From: a virus | Strand: one strand, 5' to 3' | Virus genome (UHGV): UHGV-0075529 | DNA length: 16,505 nt | Part shown: one piece after another, positions 50 to 10,538 of the stretch | Position numbering within the stretch: the first letter of the stretch is position 1 | How the letters are laid out: each line of letters starts with the position of its first letter | Made by a program: the position numbers and the translations under genes | Notes under the pieces: generated by a model | The model's input: the letters and a program-made list of their open reading frames with translations, nothing else | Told to the model about the DNA's origin: nothing | Database searches by the model: none

Positions 50-448
50 TTACTCAACAGGTAAGGCGCGAGGTTTTCCTTCAGGATCAACCGCGACATA
101 CTTAAATAATGCTTCTGTCGCTTTATACCGTTGCCCGATTGGTTCAGACGCTACTTTTTTCACCCACACTTCAATATTAATGCTGACCGATGTCGTCCCT
201 TTCTGGACACAGCGTGCATAGCAGCACACCACATCGCCGACCGCAACCGGCCGTAAGAAAGTCATTCCTTCAACCCGCACAGTCACTACGCGACCGTGGG
301 CAATTTCTTTTGCCAGAATAGCGCCGCCAATATCCATTTGTGACATTAACCAACCACCAAAGATGTCACCATTGGCATTGGTATCGGCGGGCATGGCTAA
401 AGTACGTAAAACAAGATCGCCCTGAGGGACGTTATGTGTTGTAGACAT
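50..448 (-). CDS. yciA: Acyl-CoA thioester hydrolase YciA (hotdog fold)
   Basis: 132-aa ORF recognised as enterobacterial YciA from the full sequence (MSTTHNVPQGDLVLRTLAMPADTNANGDIFGGW...); chromosomal, not phage. Confidence 0.9.
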   Translation of the reverse strand: MSTTHNVPQGDLVLRTLAMPADTNANGDIFGGWLMSQMDIGGAILAKEIAHGRVVTVRVEGMTFLRPVAVGDVVCCYARCVQKGTTSVSINIEVWVKKVASEPIGQRYKATEALFKYVAVDPEGKPRALPVE

Positions 449-580: not shown

Positions 581-750
581 CTTTAACGAGTTCTGCTTTA
601 TCGTGTTTTATTGCGTTTAAAATTATTCCCGCCCAAACCGCGCCGTTACTCACTTCATTGTTTATAACGCTTTAACGTGTTTTATTTTGTATGGTTGCAA
701 TTTACGTGTTTTGTGTACACTGCTGAGTACATGGCTCAGGGGTGTACACG
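581..750. repeat. Repeat-rich junction upstream of int (candidate attL arm sites and int promoter region)
   Basis: CGTGTTTT at 602, 676 and 705; CTTTAACG at 581 and 671; 8-bp palindrome GTGTACAC at 713-720 and again at 742-749, just before the int start. Confidence 0.3.
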
Positions 751-1932
751 ATGCTCACAGATACAAAACTTCGCAAGGCGCTTGGGAAGCGCAGAGAGAG
801 TGTGGAAGTTCTCTCAGATTCAAACGGGCTTAACGTGAGGTTAAGCATAACTGGTGGCGTAACTTTCTTCTACCGTTATCGCTGGCAGGGTAAGCCGGTG
901 CAGCTCAGCATAGGTGAATACCCAGCCTACTCATTAGCGCAGGCCAGAGACCGCAGGCAGCAGTTTCGCGCCTGGCTGAGTGAGGGTTACGATCCACGCC
1001 AGAAGGTTCTGGTTGAGAAAGCGGAAAGGATAGAGGCGCTGACGGTTGACCAGGCGTATGAGTACTGGGTAAAGCATTACTGCATTCCCGAGGGTCTGAT
1101 AAAAATCGATGCCAATACCAGGAGCTTTCAGAAGCACATTAGCCCGCGCATTGGCAGGGCGATGGTTGATCAGACAGTCAAGGCTAACTGGCTTGATGTG
1201 TTCGACGAGATGGGGCGTTCGGTTATTACTGGTGAGATGCTGTCATTAATGAAGCGCGCGTTCCGGTTCTGCCATAACCGAGGGGTGATTAAAAACAACC
1301 CGCTTGAATCCTTGCGCAGATCAGACGTTGGTATTGCAGCGAAGATGAAGGAGAGGCGACTCTCCGACGAAGAGATCAAAGTGGTTTGGGATACACTTTT
1401 CGCGCTCCCTCCATCACAGCAGCTTGTTATACGGTTCATGCTCCTGACTGGGTGCAGGGCTGCAGAAATAAGGAAATCGCGCTGGGACTGGTACAACTTT
1501 AATGAAAAGACCTGGACGGTACCGGCTGAGGATTACAAAACAGGGAAGACGATCAGGAGGGCATTGCCTGAAGTGGCGATCAGGCTACTTCAGGAGCATA
1601 AAAGAGGTTCGGTCACTAAGCACGTTTTAACACCGGCTCAGTTCCGAGATAAAGAAGACATTCCACCTACTCAGGCTCTGGTATCGACCTATTCCATGCA
1701 GGTGATCAGAAAGACAGACATGAAACAGTGGTCTCTGCATGACCTGAGACGCACCGTGGCTACCAGGCTGTCAGAACTTGGCGCGCCACCGCATGTTATT
1801 GAAAAGCTACTCGGTCATCAGATGGGTGGGGTGATGGCCAGATACAACCTGCACGACTATATGGATGATCAGCGCGAGTGGTTGGGTATCTGGCAGAATC
1901 ACCTGCAGAGCATTATTGGGTATCAGCTTTAG
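751..1932 (+). CDS. int: Tyrosine site-specific integrase (P4-like, N-terminal arm-binding domain)
   Basis: C-terminal catalytic motifs HDLRRT, LLGHQ and tyrosine in VMARYNLHDY; N-terminus MLTDTKLRKA typical of this family. The ORF track starts at GTG 742; first in-frame ATG is 751. Confidence 0.88.
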   Translation: MLTDTKLRKALGKRRESVEVLSDSNGLNVRLSITGGVTFFYRYRWQGKPVQLSIGEYPAYSLAQARDRRQQFRAWLSEGYDPRQKVLVEKAERIEALTVDQAYEYWVKHYCIPEGLIKIDANTRSFQKHISPRIGRAMVDQTVKANWLDVFDEMGRSVITGEMLSLMKRAFRFCHNRGVIKNNPLESLRRSDVGIAAKMKERRLSDEEIKVVWDTLFALPPSQQLVIRFMLLTGCRAAEIRKSRWDWYNFNEKTWTVPAEDYKTGKTIRRALPEVAIRLLQEHKRGSVTKHVLTPAQFRDKEDIPPTQALVSTYSMQVIRKTDMKQWSLHDLRRTVATRLSELGAPPHVIEKLLGHQMGGVMARYNLHDYMDDQREWLGIWQNHLQSIIGYQL

Positions 1933-2128
1933 AGGCGTTGACCTGCATTTCCCACGAAACGATCTCCGACTCTCTCCAGCGTTTTGGGTTGCCGGGGATT
2001 GTTGGTTTGGGGAAAGGGCAGGTGAAGCCAGCAGGCATTCGCTCCGGGGTGCTCCAGAAATACAGAGTGCTCCGGGAAATCTTATAGCGAGCCAGTACGT
2101 CACTGGTAAGCAGGATACTGTCATTCAT
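1913..2128 (-). CDS. AlpA-family DNA-binding protein (excisionase / prophage regulator)
   Basis: 71-aa ORF with the AlpA signature ...ISRSTLYFW...FPKPTIPG..KRWRESEIVSWE; SD GGAGA 6 nt upstream of ATG 2128; 3' end overlaps the int 3' end convergently by 20 nt. Confidence 0.65.
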   Translation of the reverse strand: MNDSILLTSDVLARYKISRSTLYFWSTPERMPAGFTCPFPKPTIPGNPKRWRESEIVSWEMQVNASKADTQ

Positions 2129-3000: not shown

Positions 3001-3221
3001 TTTTCATCCTCCAAATCATCCACTGCATCCATCACGTCAGCCCCGCGAATCATCTCGAACGCCCGGCAAGCCATCTCAAAACACAGCCGCTCATGTGGGT
3101 GGGGAGACTTCCAGTATTCGAACCCATCGCGATGCGAATAGCCCTGCATCGCGTAAAACTCCCCGGCAAGCTCTATCGCGGCATCTACCAGTTCGCGGTT
3201 GGTCATCACCTTTCCCATCAC
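2997..3221 (-). CDS. Hypothetical phage protein, 74 aa
   Basis: ORF with ATGA overlap to the TraR-like gene stop. Confidence 0.55.
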   Translation of the reverse strand: MMGKVMTNRELVDAAIELAGEFYAMQGYSHRDGFEYWKSPHPHERLCFEMACRAFEMIRGADVMDAVDDLEDEK

Positions 3222-3436
3222 ATCCCCCTCTGCTTATTCCGAAATTCCATCTCACCCTGGCAATCAACGCACATCGTGCAGCCCGGATACGCTTTCCGGC
3301 GAGCCTCCGGCAGTGGCTCGCAACATTCCTCACAGTGCGTTGCCGATACCGCATCACGGTTAATCCGGTGAGCACTTAACGCAGCATTACGCTGCAACTC
3401 TTCGACGGCTGATGCGTCGTCTGCAAAATCTGCCAT
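3218..3436 (-). CDS. TraR/DksA-family C4 zinc-finger protein
   Basis: 72 aa with CEECCEPLPEARRKAYPGCTMCVDCQ (CxxC-N17-CxxC), the signature of TraR/DksA proteins; SD AGGGAG upstream. Confidence 0.75.
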   Translation of the reverse strand: MADFADDASAVEELQRNAALSAHRINRDAVSATHCEECCEPLPEARRKAYPGCTMCVDCQGEMEFRNKQRGM

Positions 3437-3490
3437 GGTCAGTGCTCCCTGAACTGTTCATTGATGCGGCTGACGGCAAACGCCAGCAAT

Positions 3491-3536
3491 AAAAAAGGCC
3501 GCATTAGCGACCCGGTGATTTGTGCTGTCATGCGGC
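3491..3536 (-). terminator. Possible weak intrinsic terminator or attenuator (minus strand) between the 203-aa gene and the TraR-like gene
   Basis: 7-bp stem GCCGCAT (3498-3504) / ATGCGGC (3530-3536) with a long ~25-nt loop, followed on the minus strand by TTTTTT (plus A-run 3491-3496); the stop of the 203-aa gene sits in the stem. Confidence 0.3.
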
Positions 3537-4139
3537 GCGACCCGCCATTATTTCGGCCTTCTGCTCATCATCAAGGATGTCGTCAGATATAATCGCCACA
3601 CGGTTGCTCGCTGCCCATGAGACAGGCTCACTTTCTCGGATCGCCTTGTTCAGTGCATCAGCGGCATCAAGAACTGCTTGCGGAAGTGAGTAACAATCAC
3701 CGCCATCAGGAATTATTTCTTCGCAATGCTGCTCAACGTCGAAATATGGCGGGTAATTTGGTTCGCAGATCATCAGTTGGAGTTCGCCTGGCAGCACTGA
3801 ATTGTCCAGGCAGTAGTCAGCCAGCGAATCAAGGTCAAAGAAATACTGATCGCCATCGAAGAGAACGAGTGGCTCGCCCGCCCAGACTGCCCGCTCCATC
3901 TCGGAAAACTTTGTCTGGCGACTTTCTCGGTGACATTCTTCGCAGTAACCATGGGGGCTATGGATTGGGTGCTCTTCTGGTTTGTTTTTGCACTTCTGGT
4001 GCGTCGCGCCACACCACCGGGCCATGCGCTCGTCATTGCCCCAGAAGCGCCCGCCACGGTCTACCCACCCGGTCAAAGTCTGGATGCTGGCTGCTTCATC
4101 GCTGTCCATCATTACAATCTTTTCAGTTTTCATGCTCAT
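3528..4139 (-). CDS. Hypothetical phage protein, 203 aa, Cys/His-rich centre and acidic C-terminus
   Basis: Long ORF with ATGA overlap to the upstream gene; motif WCGATHQKCKNKPEEHPIHSPHGYCEECH suggests metal binding; no family recognised. Confidence 0.65.
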   Translation of the reverse strand: MSMKTEKIVMMDSDEAASIQTLTGWVDRGGRFWGNDERMARWCGATHQKCKNKPEEHPIHSPHGYCEECHRESRQTKFSEMERAVWAGEPLVLFDGDQYFFDLDSLADYCLDNSVLPGELQLMICEPNYPPYFDVEQHCEEIIPDGGDCYSLPQAVLDAADALNKAIRESEPVSWAASNRVAIISDDILDDEQKAEIMAGRAA

Positions 4140-4363
4140 GACTCCACTCCGTAGCGCCCATTCAGGCGACCAATTTCGCTGTTAAATTTGATAAGGCTGA
4201 TGCCTAGAGGCTCGACGATTTGGTGATATTTTCGGAGGATAGGCGGGACGACTTTATTCCAGTTCGGCTTGGGCTTTGTGCGCATCGCCGCTTTCAGTTC
4301 GTCACTGCATCGCCGGGCCTGAGAGTGCAAAGCATTCTCCTGTTCGGTGGTCATTCGCTTCAT
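4136..4363 (-). CDS. Hypothetical phage protein, 75 aa
   Basis: ORF with ATGA overlaps at both ends (Dam stop and 203-aa start). Confidence 0.55.
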   Translation of the reverse strand: MKRMTTEQENALHSQARRCSDELKAAMRTKPKPNWNKVVPPILRKYHQIVEPLGISLIKFNSEIGRLNGRYGVES

Positions 4364-4911
4364 GCTGCCTCCCGCCGGGCGATAAGTTTCGCTCCGAAAG
4401 TCATTAATACGTCGCGCTCCACGAAATTGGACTCGCAGTGTGTCCGAGGGAATGGCCGCCAGATGAGCAACATACTCCCTTTATTATTTCCCGATACCGG
4501 CTTACCGGTGACCGGGTTGATGAATTCCAGCCGCCCGGCAGTGATGAATCGAACCTCGCTCGCCGTCTCGATAGCCTCACGGAACCAGCCGACGGAAGTA
4601 TCAGCCGGAACCAGCATGACGGTGCCGATCTGATTCTTGCTCTCCGCTGCGGCTTTCTTCACGAATGGCGTGATGTCGCTGTAAGGTGGGTTGAGCCACG
4701 CATAGCCTGGAATGGTGAGGTAATCGGCCCACGGAGTTTCCAGCGTATTCTGCTCTGCGGTGATGAACTTGCGGCAGAGCGCGTTATGCGGCGCTGCTGC
4801 GGCGTCCAGTTGAAAGCAGAACTCTGCATCCAGCGCGGCAAATAGAGCCGGTGGTGTGCGCCATAAATCACGCTGATCTGCTGGCGTGTTACTTCCGGTG
4901 TAATCGGTCAT
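4360..4911 (-). CDS. dam: Phage-type DNA N6-adenine methyltransferase (Dam family)
   Basis: 183 aa with the catalytic NPPY motif (AWLNPPYSD) and overall phage Dam architecture. Confidence 0.8.
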   Translation of the reverse strand: MTDYTGSNTPADQRDLWRTPPALFAALDAEFCFQLDAAAAPHNALCRKFITAEQNTLETPWADYLTIPGYAWLNPPYSDITPFVKKAAAESKNQIGTVMLVPADTSVGWFREAIETASEVRFITAGRLEFINPVTGKPVSGNNKGSMLLIWRPFPRTHCESNFVERDVLMTFGAKLIARREAA

Positions 4912-5066
4912 GCCGCCTCCCTCTTATTGTTTAGCTCTTCCGCCAAGCGCTGGGCCTTGAGTGGGTTCTGGATGACCATGCCGCCGGGAACCACCCACCC
5001 GCGGCGTAAGTTCGAATAGACGAGCGTCACCGATCCCACGCTGATGTTGTCGTGTGCATTTTTCAT
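4908..5066 (-). CDS. Small hypothetical protein, 52 aa (not in the ORF track)
   Basis: Hand translation of the minus strand gives [52 protein letters not shown]; ATG overlaps the exo stop and its TGA overlaps the dam ATG; SD GGAGAG 8 nt upstream. The listed 84-aa ORF here is in another frame. Confidence 0.45.
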
Positions 5067-5743
5067 CGCCATTGCTCTCCGAAGGTGAAGCCAATCTCTG
5101 CCAGCGCCTCGTCCATCTTTTCGATGAACTCCGGCACCATCTCGTCGAAGTCGGCCATGTATTTTTCATCCCGCTCAACCACGACGTAATGCAGCCCCTC
5201 GCGCTTCATGCGAGGGTCGTAGTTGGCAAAGAACCAGGCTGGATTTTTGTTTACCCACATGCTGTATTGCACCTGGGCCATGTAGTCCGCTTTGATGGCA
5301 TCGAAGCCGCCGAGCCGGAACTTCATGAAGTCTCGGGAGGTGAACGGGCATTTCAGCTCGAGGCCAAATCCGTTACTGCACAGGCCGTCTGGTGAACAGG
5401 CGGTGCGCATGGTTTCATCGCGAAAGAGGATCGGTGATTCGATGACGCTCACTCCGGTCGTGAACTCAAACAGGGTGCGTGCGTCCTCTTCGTACTGCTT
5501 GCCCCAGGCAAGCGCCTTTGCATTCACCTCCGGCGCTACACCGGTGCATACCTCAGCGAGGAGGGTGTGGAAGTAGGACATCTTCATGCAAGTCCATTTG
5601 GTGCCGCTGCGCGGTTTTGAAATGACGTTATGAACCTCAGATGCGGTGATAACACCGAGGCGAAGTCGATGCCACTCCTCATCACCCTGTTCGATTCTGG
5701 TCACATCAATGCCGGTTCGCGCCAGGATGATTTCTGGTGTCAT
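5063..5743 (-). CDS. exo: Lambda-type 5'-3' exonuclease (Red-alpha / YqaJ family)
   Basis: 226 aa, near-collinear with lambda Exo as recalled ([14 protein letters not shown]..., [32 protein letters not shown]-terminal FGEQWR). Confidence 0.9.
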
Positions 5744-6669
5744 GCGGCAGCCCTCTGCTTGAGGAAACCAAGAGCCTTGACGGCCTCTATCTCAGTGAGA
5801 TCGCCAGACTCCAGAATGTCGCGCTTGAAGATACGGCGGCACAGAGGGAGAAGGTCCTCATCCCATGTTTTGTTCATGGCGATCAGGAGGTCGTTTATCT
5901 CTTTCAGCGTGTCGAGGCTGGCCGGGGTAATATCGCGCTCTGGCTGGCGCTCTGCAGCAAAGTTGATACCCTCCTCGCCCTCAGTGTTGACGTGGTCGAT
6001 AGCGGCATCCAGACGTTCGCGTCGCGGCCAGTATTTGGTTGCCTGCTTCACGACTGTCTTGAGGATCATCTGCTCTTCGTCCGTCACCCATGGACACTTC
6101 TTGCTGCTGTCCTGCTTGTACTTCTTCCAGGCTTCCGAACGGTCACGGATCGCGAAGATATCCGCTATGCGCATGGTATGGGTGAGATAGTCGCCGTCGT
6201 CAGTTTTAACCACGACATACGCCCCAACAATCTCACCGCGCTGCTCTGCGGTGTCGAAGTCGTTGTAGATGTGAATGGGTGGCTTATCTAGCCCCTCACG
6301 GCGGAACTGGTCGTTCTTCCGCACGATTGCAGACTGGCACCACTTAATTGCACCAGATTGCTGGGCGATGTGCATCAACCCCATGTAGCTAATATCGAGG
6401 CAGATAGCACCTTTTCGCGGCACAAGATAAGCAAGTTTCTGCGCCGGGTTCAGCGATATCCCGATTCCTGAAATATTCATCAGGGCGCTACGGGTGCTAG
6501 TCGGGTTGGAGAGAGCGATTTTCGCCAGGTAGTCATTGTTGGCGAAGATCTGCATGGCGAACTCAGATTCGCGCTTGAATTGAATGGACGGTTCGGCGCA
6601 AACCTGCTCGAACTCCGCCTTGAGTGGGTTAATCAGGTTGAATACCTGATCTGTAAGCAGGCCAGCCAT
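5740..6669 (-). CDS. recT: RecT-family single-strand annealing protein
   Basis: 309 aa directly upstream of exo with ATGA coupling; sequence pattern consistent with the RecT family; SD AGGAGGA upstream. Confidence 0.75.
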
Positions 6670-6693: not shown

Positions 6694-6978
6694 TTAAAAC
6701 GGGCAGCCGGTGCGGTGTTCCCAGTCGTGCTCTGCCTGGGCGTAGGCCACTGCCGAAACGAAGTCGTTGTATGCCTCGGCAGCTTTATCGCTGCGAAGTC
6801 CTTCGTATGGGCTGGCGTCGATCGGCACGGAGAAGTGGAAGAGACCGGACGGCTCTTTTGGCATCATGTCGATGATTTCCTGCGCCCGGTCGTCGATCCA
6901 CTTCTCTTTCTCGTCGGTGAGCTGCTGCTCAGCCCAGCGTCGATCTTCGATGCGGTCGTAAGTGAGGAATGCGTTCAT
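6694..6978 (-). CDS. gam: Gam-like host-nuclease (RecBCD) inhibitor
   Basis: 94 aa; N-terminus MNAFLTYDRIEDRRWAEQQL resembles lambda GamS [22 protein letters not shown] as recalled; sits just upstream of the annealing protein as in lambda. Confidence 0.55.
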   Translation of the reverse strand: MNAFLTYDRIEDRRWAEQQLTDEKEKWIDDRAQEIIDMMPKEPSGLFHFSVPIDASPYEGLRSDKAAEAYNDFVSAVAYAQAEHDWEHRTGCPF

Positions 6979-6985
6979 GGTTGCC

Positions 6986-7957
6986 TCAGTAATGAATTTT
7001 CGCGCAGGGGATTAGGTCGTCTTTAAGTGCGGTGAGCACTTCGATAGCCTGTTCGCGGGTTAAGCTGGTGTGGCTGGTGAGCGCGTTAACGATGTTGGTG
7101 CCGACCGTCTTGCGGTGCTTCACGTCAGCTTCGCGCTTTGCCTGTTCATCGGCGAGGCGCTTCTCTTCGGCCAGGCGAGCATCTTCGGCCTGTTTTGCCT
7201 TGTGGCGCTCAGCTTCCACTGCCGCAGCTTTTTCTCTTTCCGCCCGGGCTTCTGCTTCCTTCTTCTCGCGTGTCGCACGCTGTTCCGCTTCAATGCGCTG
7301 GCGTTCCGCCAGCTCTGCACGCGCTTTCTCTTCAGCTTCACGGCGCGCTGCGGCTTCAATTTCTGCTTTGTGCTTCGCTTCGGCATCGCGTCGGGCTTGC
7401 TCTGCCGCTTCACTCTTAATGCGCTCTTCATGCTCACGTTGAGCCTGTTCCGCCAGGCGGCGCTGCTCTTCGCGGTCCCGGTCAAAATCCTTATTCATCA
7501 GCAGAGCCATTTCGTGGTCCGCTTCGAACTGAATAGCCCGCTGCAAATCGATGCTCTCGTTCATCACCAGTGCTTCGGCGTGCATCGCGTTCATGGCTTC
7601 TTCAGCCTTAATACGTTCCTGCTCGGCTTCCCATTCGGTAAGTGGGCGCCGTACTTCATCCTTCAGCGCGTCCAGCCTCTCACGCACAATGCGGCGGCTT
7701 TCGTCGATCTGCTTCGGCAGGGCTTTAAGCTCGGCAACCAGATCCTTGCCGGCGTTGTCGATATAGGTTTTGGAGCGGGCAACCTTATGCGCCATGGATG
7801 CGATCGCGTCGCGGCCTTTGCGGGTCGACACATCCGGTACCAGGCTGCGAGCTTCTTTCTCGATCGCCTCAATAATAGGGTCGAGCTGCTCTTTGGTGGT
7901 GAATACCGCCATTGCGTTCTGTTTCTCAATGACGACTAAATCCGTTACTTCGCTCAT
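6986..7957 (-). CDS. Low-complexity coiled-coil protein, 323 aa (Ala/Glu/Arg/Lys-rich centre)
   Basis: Uninterrupted ORF with strong SD (AGGAGA); central ~150 aa is a charged repeat (EAEQRATREKKEAEARAEREKAAAVEAERHKAKQ...) between non-repetitive termini. Confidence 0.7.
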   Translation of the reverse strand: MSEVTDLVVIEKQNAMAVFTTKEQLDPIIEAIEKEARSLVPDVSTRKGRDAIASMAHKVARSKTYIDNAGKDLVAELKALPKQIDESRRIVRERLDALKDEVRRPLTEWEAEQERIKAEEAMNAMHAEALVMNESIDLQRAIQFEADHEMALLMNKDFDRDREEQRRLAEQAQREHEERIKSEAAEQARRDAEAKHKAEIEAAARREAEEKARAELAERQRIEAEQRATREKKEAEARAEREKAAAVEAERHKAKQAEDARLAEEKRLADEQAKREADVKHRKTVGTNIVNALTSHTSLTREQAIEVLTALKDDLIPCAKIHY

Positions 7958-9510: not shown

Positions 9511-10188
9511 TTATGGGATGTTTAGTATTTTGGCATCAACCACAACGCCGATGATTTTGCAGTTTCCATTAATTTCTAGCATTGGATATGCGGGGTTAAG
9601 GGGCTTTAGGAAGCGTCTGCCGGCATCGATTACAAGCTTCTTAAAGGTCGCTTCGTTATCGCCTTCTAGCTTCGCGACAACCAGCTTTCCGTTGCGCGGC
9701 TCGACTTCAGGATCAACAAGTATCGCTGCTCCCTCGGGTATGCTCAGTCCAGCCGGGGAGGTCATAGAATCCCCTTTAACGTCCAGCCAGAATGAATCTT
9801 CTGAGCAGTCAACAGTCGTGTCATACCAGCGATCTATCGCTCTTCGGTGATAAGGTTCTACAGCTTCCATCCATTGCCCCGCGCTTACCCAGCTGATTAC
9901 AGGATAACTTCCTTTTGTCTCGTTCAGTCCTCGAAATGCAACGTTCGAAGGTTCTTCACTGGCGTGTAAAACATCCATCCAGCCAAAAGGCAGATCAAGC
10001 GCAGTTTCAATTTTGCGAGCCATCTTATCGCCGATATTGCGATGAGGGTTTGGTCCCAGTAGCTGGCTAAGCGCAGCCGGACTTGTCTCGATGAGCTCGG
10101 CAAACTGCGCTTTGGTCATTCCAGACTCGTGCTGACGCTTCTCGTACAGCGCTTCCAGGTTGGCTTTTCTGATTTCTTTATTTTCCAT
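9511..10188 (-). CDS. cI: cI-type prophage repressor (N-terminal HTH, C-terminal S24 LexA-like autopeptidase)
   Basis: Start taken at ATG 10188 (MENKEIRKANLEA...); C-terminal domain has the catalytic Ser in GDSM, a downstream Lys, and an Ala-Gly candidate cleavage site (SWVSAGQW). The ORF track runs to 10305 across the operators. Confidence 0.88.
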   Translation of the reverse strand: MENKEIRKANLEALYEKRQHESGMTKAQFAELIETSPAALSQLLGPNPHRNIGDKMARKIETALDLPFGWMDVLHASEEPSNVAFRGLNETKGSYPVISWVSAGQWMEAVEPYHRRAIDRWYDTTVDCSEDSFWLDVKGDSMTSPAGLSIPEGAAILVDPEVEPRNGKLVVAKLEGDNEATFKKLVIDAGRRFLKPLNPAYPMLEINGNCKIIGVVVDAKILNIP

Positions 10189-10304
10189 ACCTGCATTGTT
10201 ACTGCTTTTAGCAAAATGATAAATATGCAAATTGCTAAATGATGCTTGCGTAGTATTTAGCATAACGCTAAACTCCAAATCAAACGACTCACCCGGAGAC
10301 ACCA
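10189..10304. promoter_or_regulatory. OR operator triplet with divergent PRM/PR promoters
   Basis: 17-bp sites at 10207-10223 (TTTAGC-AAAAT-GATAAA), 10223-10239 (weak) and 10256-10272 (perfect TTTAGC-ATAAC-GCTAAA); PR candidate -35 TTGCGT (10246-10251), 17-bp spacer, -10 TAAACT (10269-10274). Confidence 0.7.
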
Positions 10305-10538
10305 ATGAGCACTGAACTACACCGCTGGCGCAAGGCCGCCACTACCGACGAATGGGCGCAGCTCGCAAAGTTGGCTAACACGACGCCAGGTTACCTGGAC
10401 CAGATCGCCTACGGAAATCGCCGGGCATCTCCAGAAATGGCATCTGCTATCGAGAAAGGCACGAAGAATTTTCACCGCCAGGCTCCGGTCCTAAAAGAAA
10501 GCCTGGTATTCGCATCGCCGCGTGATACTGCGGCCTAA
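10305..10538 (+). CDS. cro: Cro-like / YdaS-family HTH DNA-binding protein
   Basis: 77-aa ORF divergent from cI across the operator region; SD GGAGA 7 nt upstream; HTH-like segment EWAQLAKLANTTPGYLDQIAYGNR. Confidence 0.65.
   Translation: MSTELHRWRKAATTDEWAQLAKLANTTPGYLDQIAYGNRRASPEMASAIEKGTKNFHRQAPVLKESLVFASPRDTAA

Follow-up and report, generated by a model that had tools for sequence, protein, structure and literature searches.

The gene pair downstream of Dam in a lambda-like prophage comprises orf61 and a separate cassette encoding an acidic protein with a putative zinc site

The two small genes that follow the Dam methyltransferase gene in UHGV virus genome UHGV-0075529 are one backbone gene and one cassette. 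The 75-aa gene, p75, was identified by homology as orf61 of the exo-xis region, whereas the 203-aa gene, p203, forms a cassette of its own, a single independent gene that has entered between orf61 and the terminator preceding orf73/TraR. Our preferred overall reading, which combines these two identities with a function and which we consider to have an even chance of being correct in full, is that the p203 cassette encodes a non-enzymatic early zinc-domain inhibitor of a host target. The p75 family is already known as the orf61 of lambda and Shiga-toxin phages and the p203 family is uncharacterised; literature searches found nothing on the PHROG families of these genes and nothing joining the exo-xis region with anti-defense.

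The window, that is, the whole stretch of 16,505 nucleotides that was analysed, contains the exo-xis region of a lambda-like prophage, with a gene order as in lambda and phi24B. Leftward, it encodes RecT, exo, orf60a, Dam, p75, p203, a terminator, orf73 (TraR), xis, and int, and rightward a cI-like repressor, a cro-like gene, and DnaB. The orf60a homolog (DUF1317; 4908..5072, minus strand; PF07026, 4e-25) lies directly 3' of exo as in lambda, the record of which annotates orf60a as DUF1317. On the same strand follow the gene for a Dam-type N6-adenine DNA methyltransferase (4360..4911; PF05869, 5e-57; TIGR01712, 2.2e-49), p75 (4136..4363; phrog_303), p203 (3528..4139; phrog_18739 / phrog_11053), and the next exo-xis backbone gene, an orf73 / TraR-family C4 zinc-finger gene (3218..3436; PF01258, 1.2e-08; TIGR02419, 2.3e-18); lambda Orf73 is itself TraR-like (PMC8614690). 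The first-pass annotation had described two coupled genes right after Dam, and in this it was correct, as both ORFs were confirmed and a 4-nt ATGA stop/start overlap is present at both junctions. Both are real genes: homologs of p75 were found in 309 clusters, those of p203 numbered 127 among clusters at 90% identity and 1,671 among clusters at 50% identity, and the AlphaFold models of both proteins are confident (pLDDT 89.0 for p75 and 91.8 for p203).

When the p75 and p203 profiles were compared by hhalign with the lambda early proteins Xis, Orf55, Ea8.5, Ea22, Orf61, Orf63, Orf60a, Gam, Kil, CIII, Ea10, and Ral, the sole positive was p75 with Orf61, in the C-terminal part of the lambda protein (residues 32-55; probability 94.7%). 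Against Orf61 of phi24B (vb_24B_7c, 93 aa), p75 gave an hhalign probability of 98.5% (E 2.4e-15) over 69 columns, covering 69 of its 75 residues, and 35% identity in BLASTP (E 7e-14). The AF2 model of this basic protein (pI 10.1) has helices at residues 6-27, 35-53, and 57-68, and this three-helix prediction agrees with the three-helix, homeodomain-like model published for phi24B Orf61 (PMC8614690); a DNA-binding role for Orf61 likewise exists as a published model. Position also agrees, since p75 lies in the early pL operon between exo/orf60a and orf73 (TraR) and shares with phi24B orf61 its place upstream of the terminator and orf73/TraR. Searches of Pfam, NCBIfam, and PADLOC gave no match for p75, and PHROGs returned only a family of unknown function. 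p75 differs from Orf61 of Stx phages by the absence of an N-terminal extension of ~20 residues, from orf61 of phi24B and lambda in that it comes after a methyltransferase gene rather than orf63, and from that of phi24B in that the p203 cassette intervenes between it and the terminator. This homology to a described phage protein counts against the initial view of a counter-defence pair: Orf61 is a non-essential developmental modulator and not a counter-defence gene (PMC6213356, PMC8614690), and deletion of orf61 in lambda and phi24B alters the lysis/lysogeny decision and prophage induction (PMC6213356).

The gene upstream of p75 fills a variable slot between orf60a and orf61, which in related loci holds MT-A70, Dam, C5, or DPPY-motif methyltransferases. 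In this enterobacterial lineage, p75 is translationally coupled to whichever methyltransferase occupies the slot, here Dam. Among 140 p75 instances with enough flank, the upstream gene ending within 80 nt of the p75 start encoded a methyltransferase in 120 (83 MT-A70, 24 Dam, 8 C5, and 5 DPPY-motif) and a probable one (cluster cl91) in 4 more, with ATGA stop/start overlaps at the junctions. Within one group of p75 genes sharing at least 90% identity, the methyltransferase family has been exchanged five ways while p75 remained constant. The same arrangement is seen in annotated Klebsiella phages, p75 was the next gene in 53 of 80 Dam-selected loci, and an MT-A70/p75 pair was also found in another operon, a nin-like region, between replication genes and Q (locus L304). 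These observations make it conceivable, although we lean clearly against it, that in this lineage p75 works together with the orphan DNA methyltransferases of phages, so that the module would be methyltransferase plus p75 and not p75 plus p203; p75 could then act as a regulator, as an aid to DNA targeting, or as protection from effects of foreign methylation, methylation-dependent restriction being one example. The pattern is explained equally, however, by a cassette-insertion hot spot between backbone genes orf60a and orf61 with the shared junction gGAGGCnGC-ATG-A. In addition, the wider Orf61 family of lambda and Stx phages (176 phage records) comes after orf63/DUF1382 with no methyltransferase, and ~10% of p75 genes have no adjoining methyltransferase. 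It is unlikely that p75 pairs physically with methyltransferases of four or five unrelated folds, and among the 309 p75 clusters there was no fusion, whether to a methyltransferase or to any other protein.

The first-pass annotation had further treated p75 and p203 as a two-gene unit within a block with Dam, an association that was largely dissolved by the distribution of the genes. An Orf61-like gene is directly upstream of p203 in 4 of the 35 sequence groups of the p203 family, and the 61 loci that carry the pair belong to one enterobacterial lineage. Conversely, p203 comes next after p75 in 1 of 83 p75-selected loci and in 5 of 57 cases in Dam-selected loci; the gene downstream of near-identical copies of p75 can be DUF5405, a member of cluster cl56, or p203. 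A check for co-occurrence with methyltransferases found a methyltransferase-like gene within 2.5 kb of p203 in 15 of the 35 groups, with no fixed order. In one of these contexts (locus L299), a 60-aa gene that lies between Dam and the p203 homolog was considered as a diverged p75 and rejected, as it encodes an unrelated hydrophobic peptide. Across Enterobacteriaceae, Pseudomonas, Burkholderiales, and metagenomic phages, p203 without exception shares the strand of the operon and has recombination genes (RecT, exo, DUF3799, RdgC, Erf/SSB) on one side and xis/int on the other; its immediate neighbours vary. It is also found by itself on 86 plasmids, most of which are large and 72 of which are conjugative, with clinical Klebsiella, Raoultella, and Enterobacter among the hosts of the large conjugative ones. 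There it sits in a 23-kb one-directional array of small uncharacterised genes; a test of this array as a leading region turned up no annotation of oriT, ssb, psiB, or ardA nearby. This distribution bears as well on the idea of a toxin-antitoxin-like or abortive-infection system made up of the basic p75 and the acidic p203, which their opposite pI values (10.1 and 4.5) and translational coupling might suggest. Each gene is far commoner without the other, which largely refutes such a pairing, and lambda has Orf61 without any p203; PADLOC gave no match, and both genes are part of an early operon controlled by a repressor and not by a constitutive promoter. We therefore regard a toxin-antitoxin pair as highly improbable.

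The slot that holds p203 ends at a conserved 91-nt intergenic element (3437..3527, minus strand) made up of the terminator and the leader of orf73/TraR. The intrinsic terminator (3487..3513, minus strand) has a 7-bp stem, a 4-nt loop, and a U6AUU tail, with the stem-loop GGGTCGC-TAAT-GCGGCCT at 3513..3496 and the U-run at 3495..3487. The stop codon of p203 had been placed inside this hairpin; it is instead at 3530..3528, and the terminator starts 14 nt downstream of it. The local hairpin is retained with compensatory changes, and two stem alleles occur among the variants. The terminator element is present in 48 loci, phi24B carries this same element between orf61 and orf73, and positions 3439-3536 of the window are 93.9% identical to HK639. 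As the 91-nt element is found in loci both with and without p203 and ends the slot in either case, we count it as support for the cassette behaviour of p203. Two other candidate elements were discarded: a long-range stem enclosing the stop codon (GCCGCAT 3536-3530 / ATGCGGC 3504-3498) is not retained in relatives, and a promoter-like site in the 3' end of p203 (3574..3547) is attributable to chance, with 1 found versus 2.8 expected. The resulting map of the region has two slots, one for a methyltransferase between orf60a and orf61 and one for a cassette between orf61 and the conserved terminator.

The p203 protein is predicted to consist of two domains. Its N-terminal domain (residues 1-82; 3894..4139, minus strand) comprises a beta-hairpin, a helix, and a putative zinc site, has a net charge of about 0, and contains most of the residues found invariant in the alignments (A17, G24, W25, G30, G34, E37, A40, R41, G44, T46, H47, C50, C66, and C69). 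A His/Cys cluster had been taken to suggest metal coordination, and this stands for four of its residues, the putative ligands H47-x2-C50 ... C66-x2-C69 (3933..4001, minus strand), which are conserved at 99-100% in 257 diverse p203-family sequences. These form two x2-spaced pairs, arranged like a zinc knuckle together with a helix N-terminus, at which the second pair lies (C66 and C69 at the start of helix 67-80 in the AlphaFold model), as expected for the ligands of a zinc ribbon or treble clef. The claim did not extend to the remaining histidines: H57, H60, and H63 are missing from all conservation lists, and at position H70 Arg is commoner than His in the family. Judging from this conservation, p203 probably binds zinc at a His-Cys3 site.

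The C-terminal alpha/beta domain (residues 83-190; 3570..3893, minus strand) is less conserved and strongly acidic, with a median net charge of -18 (range -24 to -9) over ~108 residues in 257 sequences, or about -0.17 per residue. The strongly acidic C-terminus noted at the outset is a family-wide property at the level of the domain, whereas the extreme tail (ISDDILDDEQKAE) is confined to an enterobacterial subgroup. For 233 members of the family, the median pI is 4.53 and the net charge -19; a charge of about -0.1 per residue, as in p203 overall, is usual among cytosolic proteins, but the value of -0.17 for the C-terminal domain exceeds this. Invariant or near-invariant residues of this domain are N164, W175, and, in a 34-sequence alignment, S174. 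No Pfam, NCBIfam, or PADLOC model matched p203, with no enzyme-family motif found in any of the three, and PHROGs returned only families of unknown function. A fold search with the confident model matched no PDB fold, and sequence and profile searches of the PDB gave only non-significant hits (Harmonin, Cmr6, and the eL37/S14 zinc ribbons; E >= 0.08).

Relatives of p203 include fusions to other domains. Two proteins, P0035 and P0032, carry the whole of p203 fused to an Ead_Ea22-type coiled-coil tail, and P0035 is the only fusion relative with a PF13935 match (3.4e-07). In P0093 and P0097, the N-terminal domain alone, without the C-terminal domain, is fused to coiled-coil tails. Other fusion partners are a DnaJ-type CXXCXGXG finger, a weak HTH, phrog_4657, and uncharacterised N-terminal domains; a Rosetta-stone search yielded no partner of known function. 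Recombination of the N-terminal domain with Ea22-type coiled coils and small domains is as expected of a binding module.

From composition, conservation pattern, and context, we infer that p203 has a protein-binding or inhibitor function, and its target is proposed on the same grounds. In the preferred reading, p203 would be a non-enzymatic early protein whose conserved zinc domain docks onto a host target that is itself conserved and probably linked to DNA or transcription, and whose acidic domain blocks or mimics a nucleic-acid-binding surface; its action would help the mobile element to establish itself or take over the host on entry or waking. The near-invariant residues E37, R41, T46, N164, and S174 might just as well belong to a catalytic or ligand-binding site, and together with W175 they would suit a role of p203 as a zinc-dependent accessory to the phage recombination module (RecT/exo/RdgC/SSB), either binding nucleic acid or acting as an enzyme. 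In almost all phage contexts p203 is downstream of recombination genes, right after RecT in one locus (L128) and before RdgC and SSB in Vibrio phage Val-yong3; 7 of the 35 groups have RdgC close by as a neighbour, and the zinc stretch has a weak, non-significant resemblance to RNA-binding zinc-ribbon ribosomal proteins. Operon order suffices to account for this proximity, however, since all exo-xis genes come after the recombination genes, and plasmid copies of p203 have no recombination gene nearby. The protein as a whole, at a net charge of about -19, seems ill suited to binding nucleic acid directly, the beta-hairpin has no HNH-type catalytic histidine, and no nuclease or enzyme family was matched, so that we consider a recombination accessory improbable.

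Counter-defence is one sub-case of the docking and blocking that we propose, and a role of this kind for p203 is suggested circumstantially by the presence of p203 on conjugative plasmids, for which restriction is the same barrier, and by the neighbour of the Vibrio phage homolog. The first-pass annotation had gone further and proposed a counter-restriction block in which Dam methylates, p203 is an Ocr/ArdA-like DNA mimic, and p75 perhaps assists. The acidic C-terminal domain and the early operon location of p203 accord with this proposal, as does lambda ral, annotated as a restriction-alleviation gene in the pL operon. In Val-yong3 the homolog comes right after a gene with the annotation 'restriction alleviation protein', the homolog of locus L300 has a PAPS-reductase-family gene as its immediate upstream neighbour, and that of L299 is separated from an upstream Dam by a single small gene. 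Yet the methyltransferase-like or other DNA-modification genes found within 2.5 kb in 15 of the 35 groups leave 20 groups with no methyltransferase nearby, Dam, p75, and p203 occur together in a minority of loci only, and published work does not tie p75, as Orf61, to restriction. By sequence and fold, p203 is unlike any solved structure in the PDB, which includes Ocr, ArdA, KlcA/ArdB, Arn, and Gam, and hhalign found no similarity to lambda Ral or Gam. The best-conserved part of p203 is the neutral zinc domain and not the acidic domain, and because the former is near-invariant from Enterobacteriaceae to Burkholderiales, a conserved cellular target fits better than variable restriction enzymes. 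A block of all three genes is accordingly an unlikely explanation.

Recognition of the pair as one backbone gene and one cassette removes a false lead and leaves p203 as a well-delimited candidate, with no discovery as yet. The family is large (~1,700 clusters at 50% identity), its confident model matches no solved structure, and H47, C50, C66, and C69 offer an obvious mutational handle. A bolder combined reading, for which we see a rather low probability, is that the p203 family is a new, widespread class of establishment or anti-defence effectors of temperate phages and conjugative plasmids, in which the His-Cys3 anchor would dock on a conserved host or defence component and the acidic domain would occlude a DNA-binding surface, and that, separately, Orf61-like proteins are dedicated companions of orphan methyltransferases. 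If p203 is a true anti-defence or host-takeover factor, it would be relevant to phage therapy and plasmid spread; if Orf61-like proteins are true methyltransferase companions, the long-unexplained orf61 would gain a molecular role.

Several known systems resemble p203 in part. T7 Ocr and ArdA are likewise small, strongly acidic, early, and found on phages and conjugative plasmids, but p203 is not similar to them in sequence or fold, its acidity is in one domain only, and its conserved zinc domain is absent from both. Ral of lambda and Lar of the Rac prophage are, like p203, products of pL-operon accessory genes linked to DNA modification, and a Lar-type gene adjoins the p203 homolog in Vibrio phage Val-yong3. 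The p203 and p75 profiles nevertheless reached hhalign probabilities of at most 0.2% against lambda Ral, and p203 had no match to any Pfam family, including the Lar family if present. The Ea22/Ead proteins (PF13935) of the exo-xis region are mosaics in which a coiled coil is flanked by end domains that can be exchanged; they are encoded in the same genomic region as p203 and are likewise expressed early. The fusion of p203 or its N-terminal domain to coiled-coil tails (P0035, P0032, P0093, and P0097) indicates that it behaves like an interchangeable Ea22-type head domain. The p203 of the window differs from Ea22/Ead in having no coiled coil and no Ead_Ea22 signature in Pfam (hhalign probability 0.1% with lambda Ea22), in a fold that is unmatched in the PDB, which includes the solved C-terminal domain of lambda Ea22, and in a family that extends far beyond lambdoid phages to Pseudomonas, Burkholderiales, Vibrio, and plasmids. 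With Orf73/TraR, which binds RNA polymerase, and Ea8.5, a homeodomain/zinc-finger hybrid, p203 shares a Cys/His zinc site, putative in its case, an exo-xis location, and a presumed mode of action that is not catalytic but consists in binding to a host macromolecule.

The window is the end of a lambda-like prophage. A yciA-like thioesterase gene (50..448) lies at its left end, followed by an integrase with Arm-DNA-bind_3 and Phage_integrase domains (742..1932, plus strand), which reads into the prophage and overlaps convergently with a short ORF (1913..2128) judged xis-like by eye. The window contains no tRNA gene, so a tRNA does not serve as the attachment site near 450-740. The right part has a cI-like S24 repressor gene on the minus strand (9511..10305), a short ORF called cro-like from its position, and the gene for DnaB. 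The long leftward operon contains, in order, RecT (5740..6669), an exonuclease (5063..5743), DUF1317 (4908..5072), a 183-aa Dam-type N6-adenine methyltransferase (4360..4911, minus strand; PF05869, 5e-57; TIGR01712, 2.2e-49), the 75-aa protein p75 (4136..4363, minus strand), the 203-aa protein p203 (3528..4139, minus strand), a TraR-family zinc finger (3218..3436), and DUF4222. Just upstream of RecT, genes for a 323-aa protein whose long middle section is coiled-coil-like and rich in Glu/Ala/Arg (6986-7957, minus strand) and a 94-aa protein (6694-6978, minus strand), both without a Pfam match, occupy the place of the GamL-like gene in Enterobacter phage CobraSix. Because DUF1317 is orf60a in the lambda annotation (where DUF1382 is orf63) and orf73 is equated with TraR in the literature (PMC8614690), the Dam/p75/p203 set belongs to the classical exo-xis region. 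Both the Dam/p75 and p75/p203 junctions are ATGA stop/start overlaps, as first described. Neither p75 nor p203 matched Pfam, NCBIfam, or PADLOC; in PHROGs they fall into 'unknown function' families (phrog_303 for p75, phrog_18739 and phrog_11053 for p203).

The first-pass annotation, largely right in its facts, was wrong to treat p75 and p203 as a gene pair: they are not a unit. Clustering of 126 p203 loci at 85% protein identity gave 35 groups. In 61 of the loci, but in only 4 of the 35 groups, p203 is immediately preceded by a p75 homolog whose stop codon overlaps the p203 start; what the groups share is the strand and a place after recombination genes (RecT, DUF3799 nuclease, RdgC, or Erf/SSB) and before xis/int. 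Among independently sampled p75 loci, p203 comes after p75 in 1 of 83. Loci sampled by Dam have p75 after Dam in 53 of 80 cases and p203 after p75 in 5 of 57, and what comes after near-identical p75 genes varies between DUF5405, a 235-aa acidic protein (cluster cl56), and p203. A methyltransferase-like gene is found within 2.5 kb of p203, on either side, in 15 of 35 groups. Furthermore, p203 occurs alone on 86 plasmid records (72 conjugative), chiefly 200-280 kb plasmids of Klebsiella and Raoultella such as the MOBH plasmid pKpNDM1, whose homolog is 58% identical (NC_023911.1 58236-58847; 9001-9612 of the fetched locus). There it sits in a one-directional array of approximately 23 kb with about 45 small unknown genes, in which p75 and Dam were not found; DUF4942, DUF6012, DUF262, and DUF957 proteins are also encoded in the array. 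As a possible partner of p203, the cl56 protein, which has no Pfam match, is a stronger candidate than p75. In four sequence groups (with L088 3297-4004, L081, and L139 as loci) its gene immediately precedes p203, with overlapping stop/start, and in one p203-related protein (P0240) a cl56-related-looking N-terminal domain (residues 14-213, matching phrog_4657) is fused to a p203 domain. We conclude that p203 is a new, well-defined member of the accessory cassettes already known from the exo-xis region or early operon, and its family offers a real but unproven upside.

The 75-aa gene, initially left without a family, is orf61, a family already described. A profile of p75 homologs matched Orf61 of phi24B (vb_24B_7c, 93 aa) over 69 columns (hhalign probability 98.5%, E 2.4e-15), and pairwise BLASTP gave 35% identity (E 7e-14). 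The match to lambda Orf61 is limited to its C-terminal part (hhalign probability 94.7%), which fits the published truncation of the lambda protein relative to the Stx-phage protein (PMC8614690). The AlphaFold model of p75 has three helices (pLDDT 89.0), as does the published model of phi24B Orf61 (PMC8614690), and the p75 family is basic (pI about 10). Deletion of orf61, a non-essential gene, changes the lysis/lysogeny decision and prophage induction in lambda and phi24B (PMC6213356).

The gene ending at the p75 start codon encodes a DNA methyltransferase in 120 of 140 instances with enough flank (83 MT-A70, 24 Dam, 8 C5, and 5 DPPY-motif); the rest include a probable methyltransferase (cluster cl91) in four and a homing-type HNH gene in four. 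An MT-A70/p75 pair also occurs in a rightward operon, between replication genes and RusA plus Q. In that locus (L304 2345-3240, Enterobacter hormaechei CP187179.1) and in L305 the two genes overlap in a nin-like region outside the exo-xis region (cro ... replication ... MT-A70, Orf61-like, LexA-DBD-like, RusA, DUF968, Q). Against a dedicated partnership, orf61 of lambda and Stx phages comes after orf63, with no methyltransferase before it, and the same junction, gGAGGCnGC-ATG-A (a Shine-Dalgarno sequence plus stop/start overlap), recurs in mutually unrelated genes that precede p75: Dam, DUF1317, DPPY-motif methyltransferase, HNH, and cl91, with MT-A70 showing a looser form. This junction (4360-4381 in the window, with equivalents in L003-L294), through which the upstream products end in -Glu-Ala-Ala (-E/R-A-A), resembles a boundary common to the cassettes, one that could allow modules to be exchanged. 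For these reasons, it is safer to describe a methyltransferase slot flanked by the backbone genes orf60a and orf61, with a functional link between methyltransferase and Orf61 as a live rival. Within one p75 group (at least 90% identity), five methyltransferase families alternate upstream. HNH/AP2-type homing-endonuclease genes whose products end in -TEAA are inserted at the methyltransferase/p75 junction in several loci (L015, L017, L020, L024, and L250), and p203 itself ends in -RAA ahead of the terminator. By eye, the 250-aa ORF that immediately precedes p75 in L057 (3028-3780) is a candidate DpdA/TGT-type DNA-modification enzyme; if so, the slot would have an occupant other than a methyltransferase.

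Homologs of p203 number 127 among 90%-identity clusters, and a profile search retrieved 1671 clusters at 50% identity (647 at E 1e-30 or better) from Enterobacteriaceae, Pseudomonas, Burkholderiales, Vibrio, and metagenomes. The exact sequence is on record in draft E. coli genomes, each time as a 'hypothetical protein', and a relative is present in only 3 of 5426 complete E. coli genomes (74-77% nucleotide identity). Among isolated phages, p203 is carried by only three distinct ones in 50,697 records: CobraSix, with the gene order of the window, Cronobacter phage JK004, and Vibrio phage Val-yong3. The Val-yong3 homolog (L296 4486-5552; 278 aa, with an N-terminal extension) has directly before it a gene with the annotation 'restriction alleviation protein', and RdgC and SSB come after it. 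Across 257 aligned sequences, the reported His/Cys cluster reduces to H47, C50, C66, and C69 (99-100% conserved); histidines 57, 60, 63, and 70 are not conserved, and the remaining near-invariant residues lie mostly within the first 50 (A17, G24, W25, G30, G34, E37, A40, R41, G44, and T46). In the confident AlphaFold model (pLDDT 91.8, pTM 0.71), a beta-hairpin and a helix precede an H-x2-C knuckle, a C-x2-C opening a long helix, and an alpha/beta domain. The family is acidic (median pI 4.53): residues 1-82 have a median net charge of 0 and residues 83-190 one of -18 (range -24 to -9). Family-wide, the acidity noted at the C-terminus extends over the domain as a whole, and the extreme acidic tail belongs to the enterobacterial subgroup only. 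The N-terminal domain is found recombined with other modules, among them Ea22-type coiled coils. A single putative structural zinc site, the apparent lack of a catalytic family signature, the recombining neutral domain, and the variable acidic domain together suggest that p203 may be a binding or inhibitor protein, the leading reading at somewhat below even odds. An N-terminal domain near-invariant from Enterobacteriaceae to Burkholderiales points to a cellular target that is itself conserved, and not to any single restriction enzyme. A DNA-mimic anti-restriction protein, the type proposed from the acidic tail, is unlikely; an enzymatic or recombination role is more improbable still. Presence on conjugative plasmids would place the role at entry or establishment.

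The p203 stop codon (3530..3528), at first placed inside a hairpin, lies within one only in a non-conserved long-range pairing. The conserved hairpin begins 14 nt beyond the stop, as an intrinsic terminator (3487-3513, minus strand) with the stem-loop GGGTCGC-TAAT-GCGGCCT at 3513..3496 followed by UUUUUUAUU at 3495..3487. Hairpin-pattern matches are not enriched in the region (7 observed versus 5.0 +/- 2.6 expected). This one is nevertheless kept in 48 loci, with p203 present or absent; its stem comes in two forms related by compensatory substitutions (GGUCGC/GCGGCC and GGAGC/GCUCC), and all versions have folding energies of -7 to -14 kcal/mol. It lies in a conserved intergenic element (3437-3527, minus strand) preceding orf73/TraR, copies of which (L308 2826-2858, L002 4001-4089) range across lambdoid phages, from phi24B to these prophages. 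Since it is kept with or without p203, has compensatory stems, and is present in phi24B, the hairpin is a true terminator of the backbone, located upstream of orf73, with p203 inserted just before it. In phi24B the same element stands between orf61 and orf73; HK639 has a 94%-identical copy after a methyltransferase gene, but with the U-run replaced.
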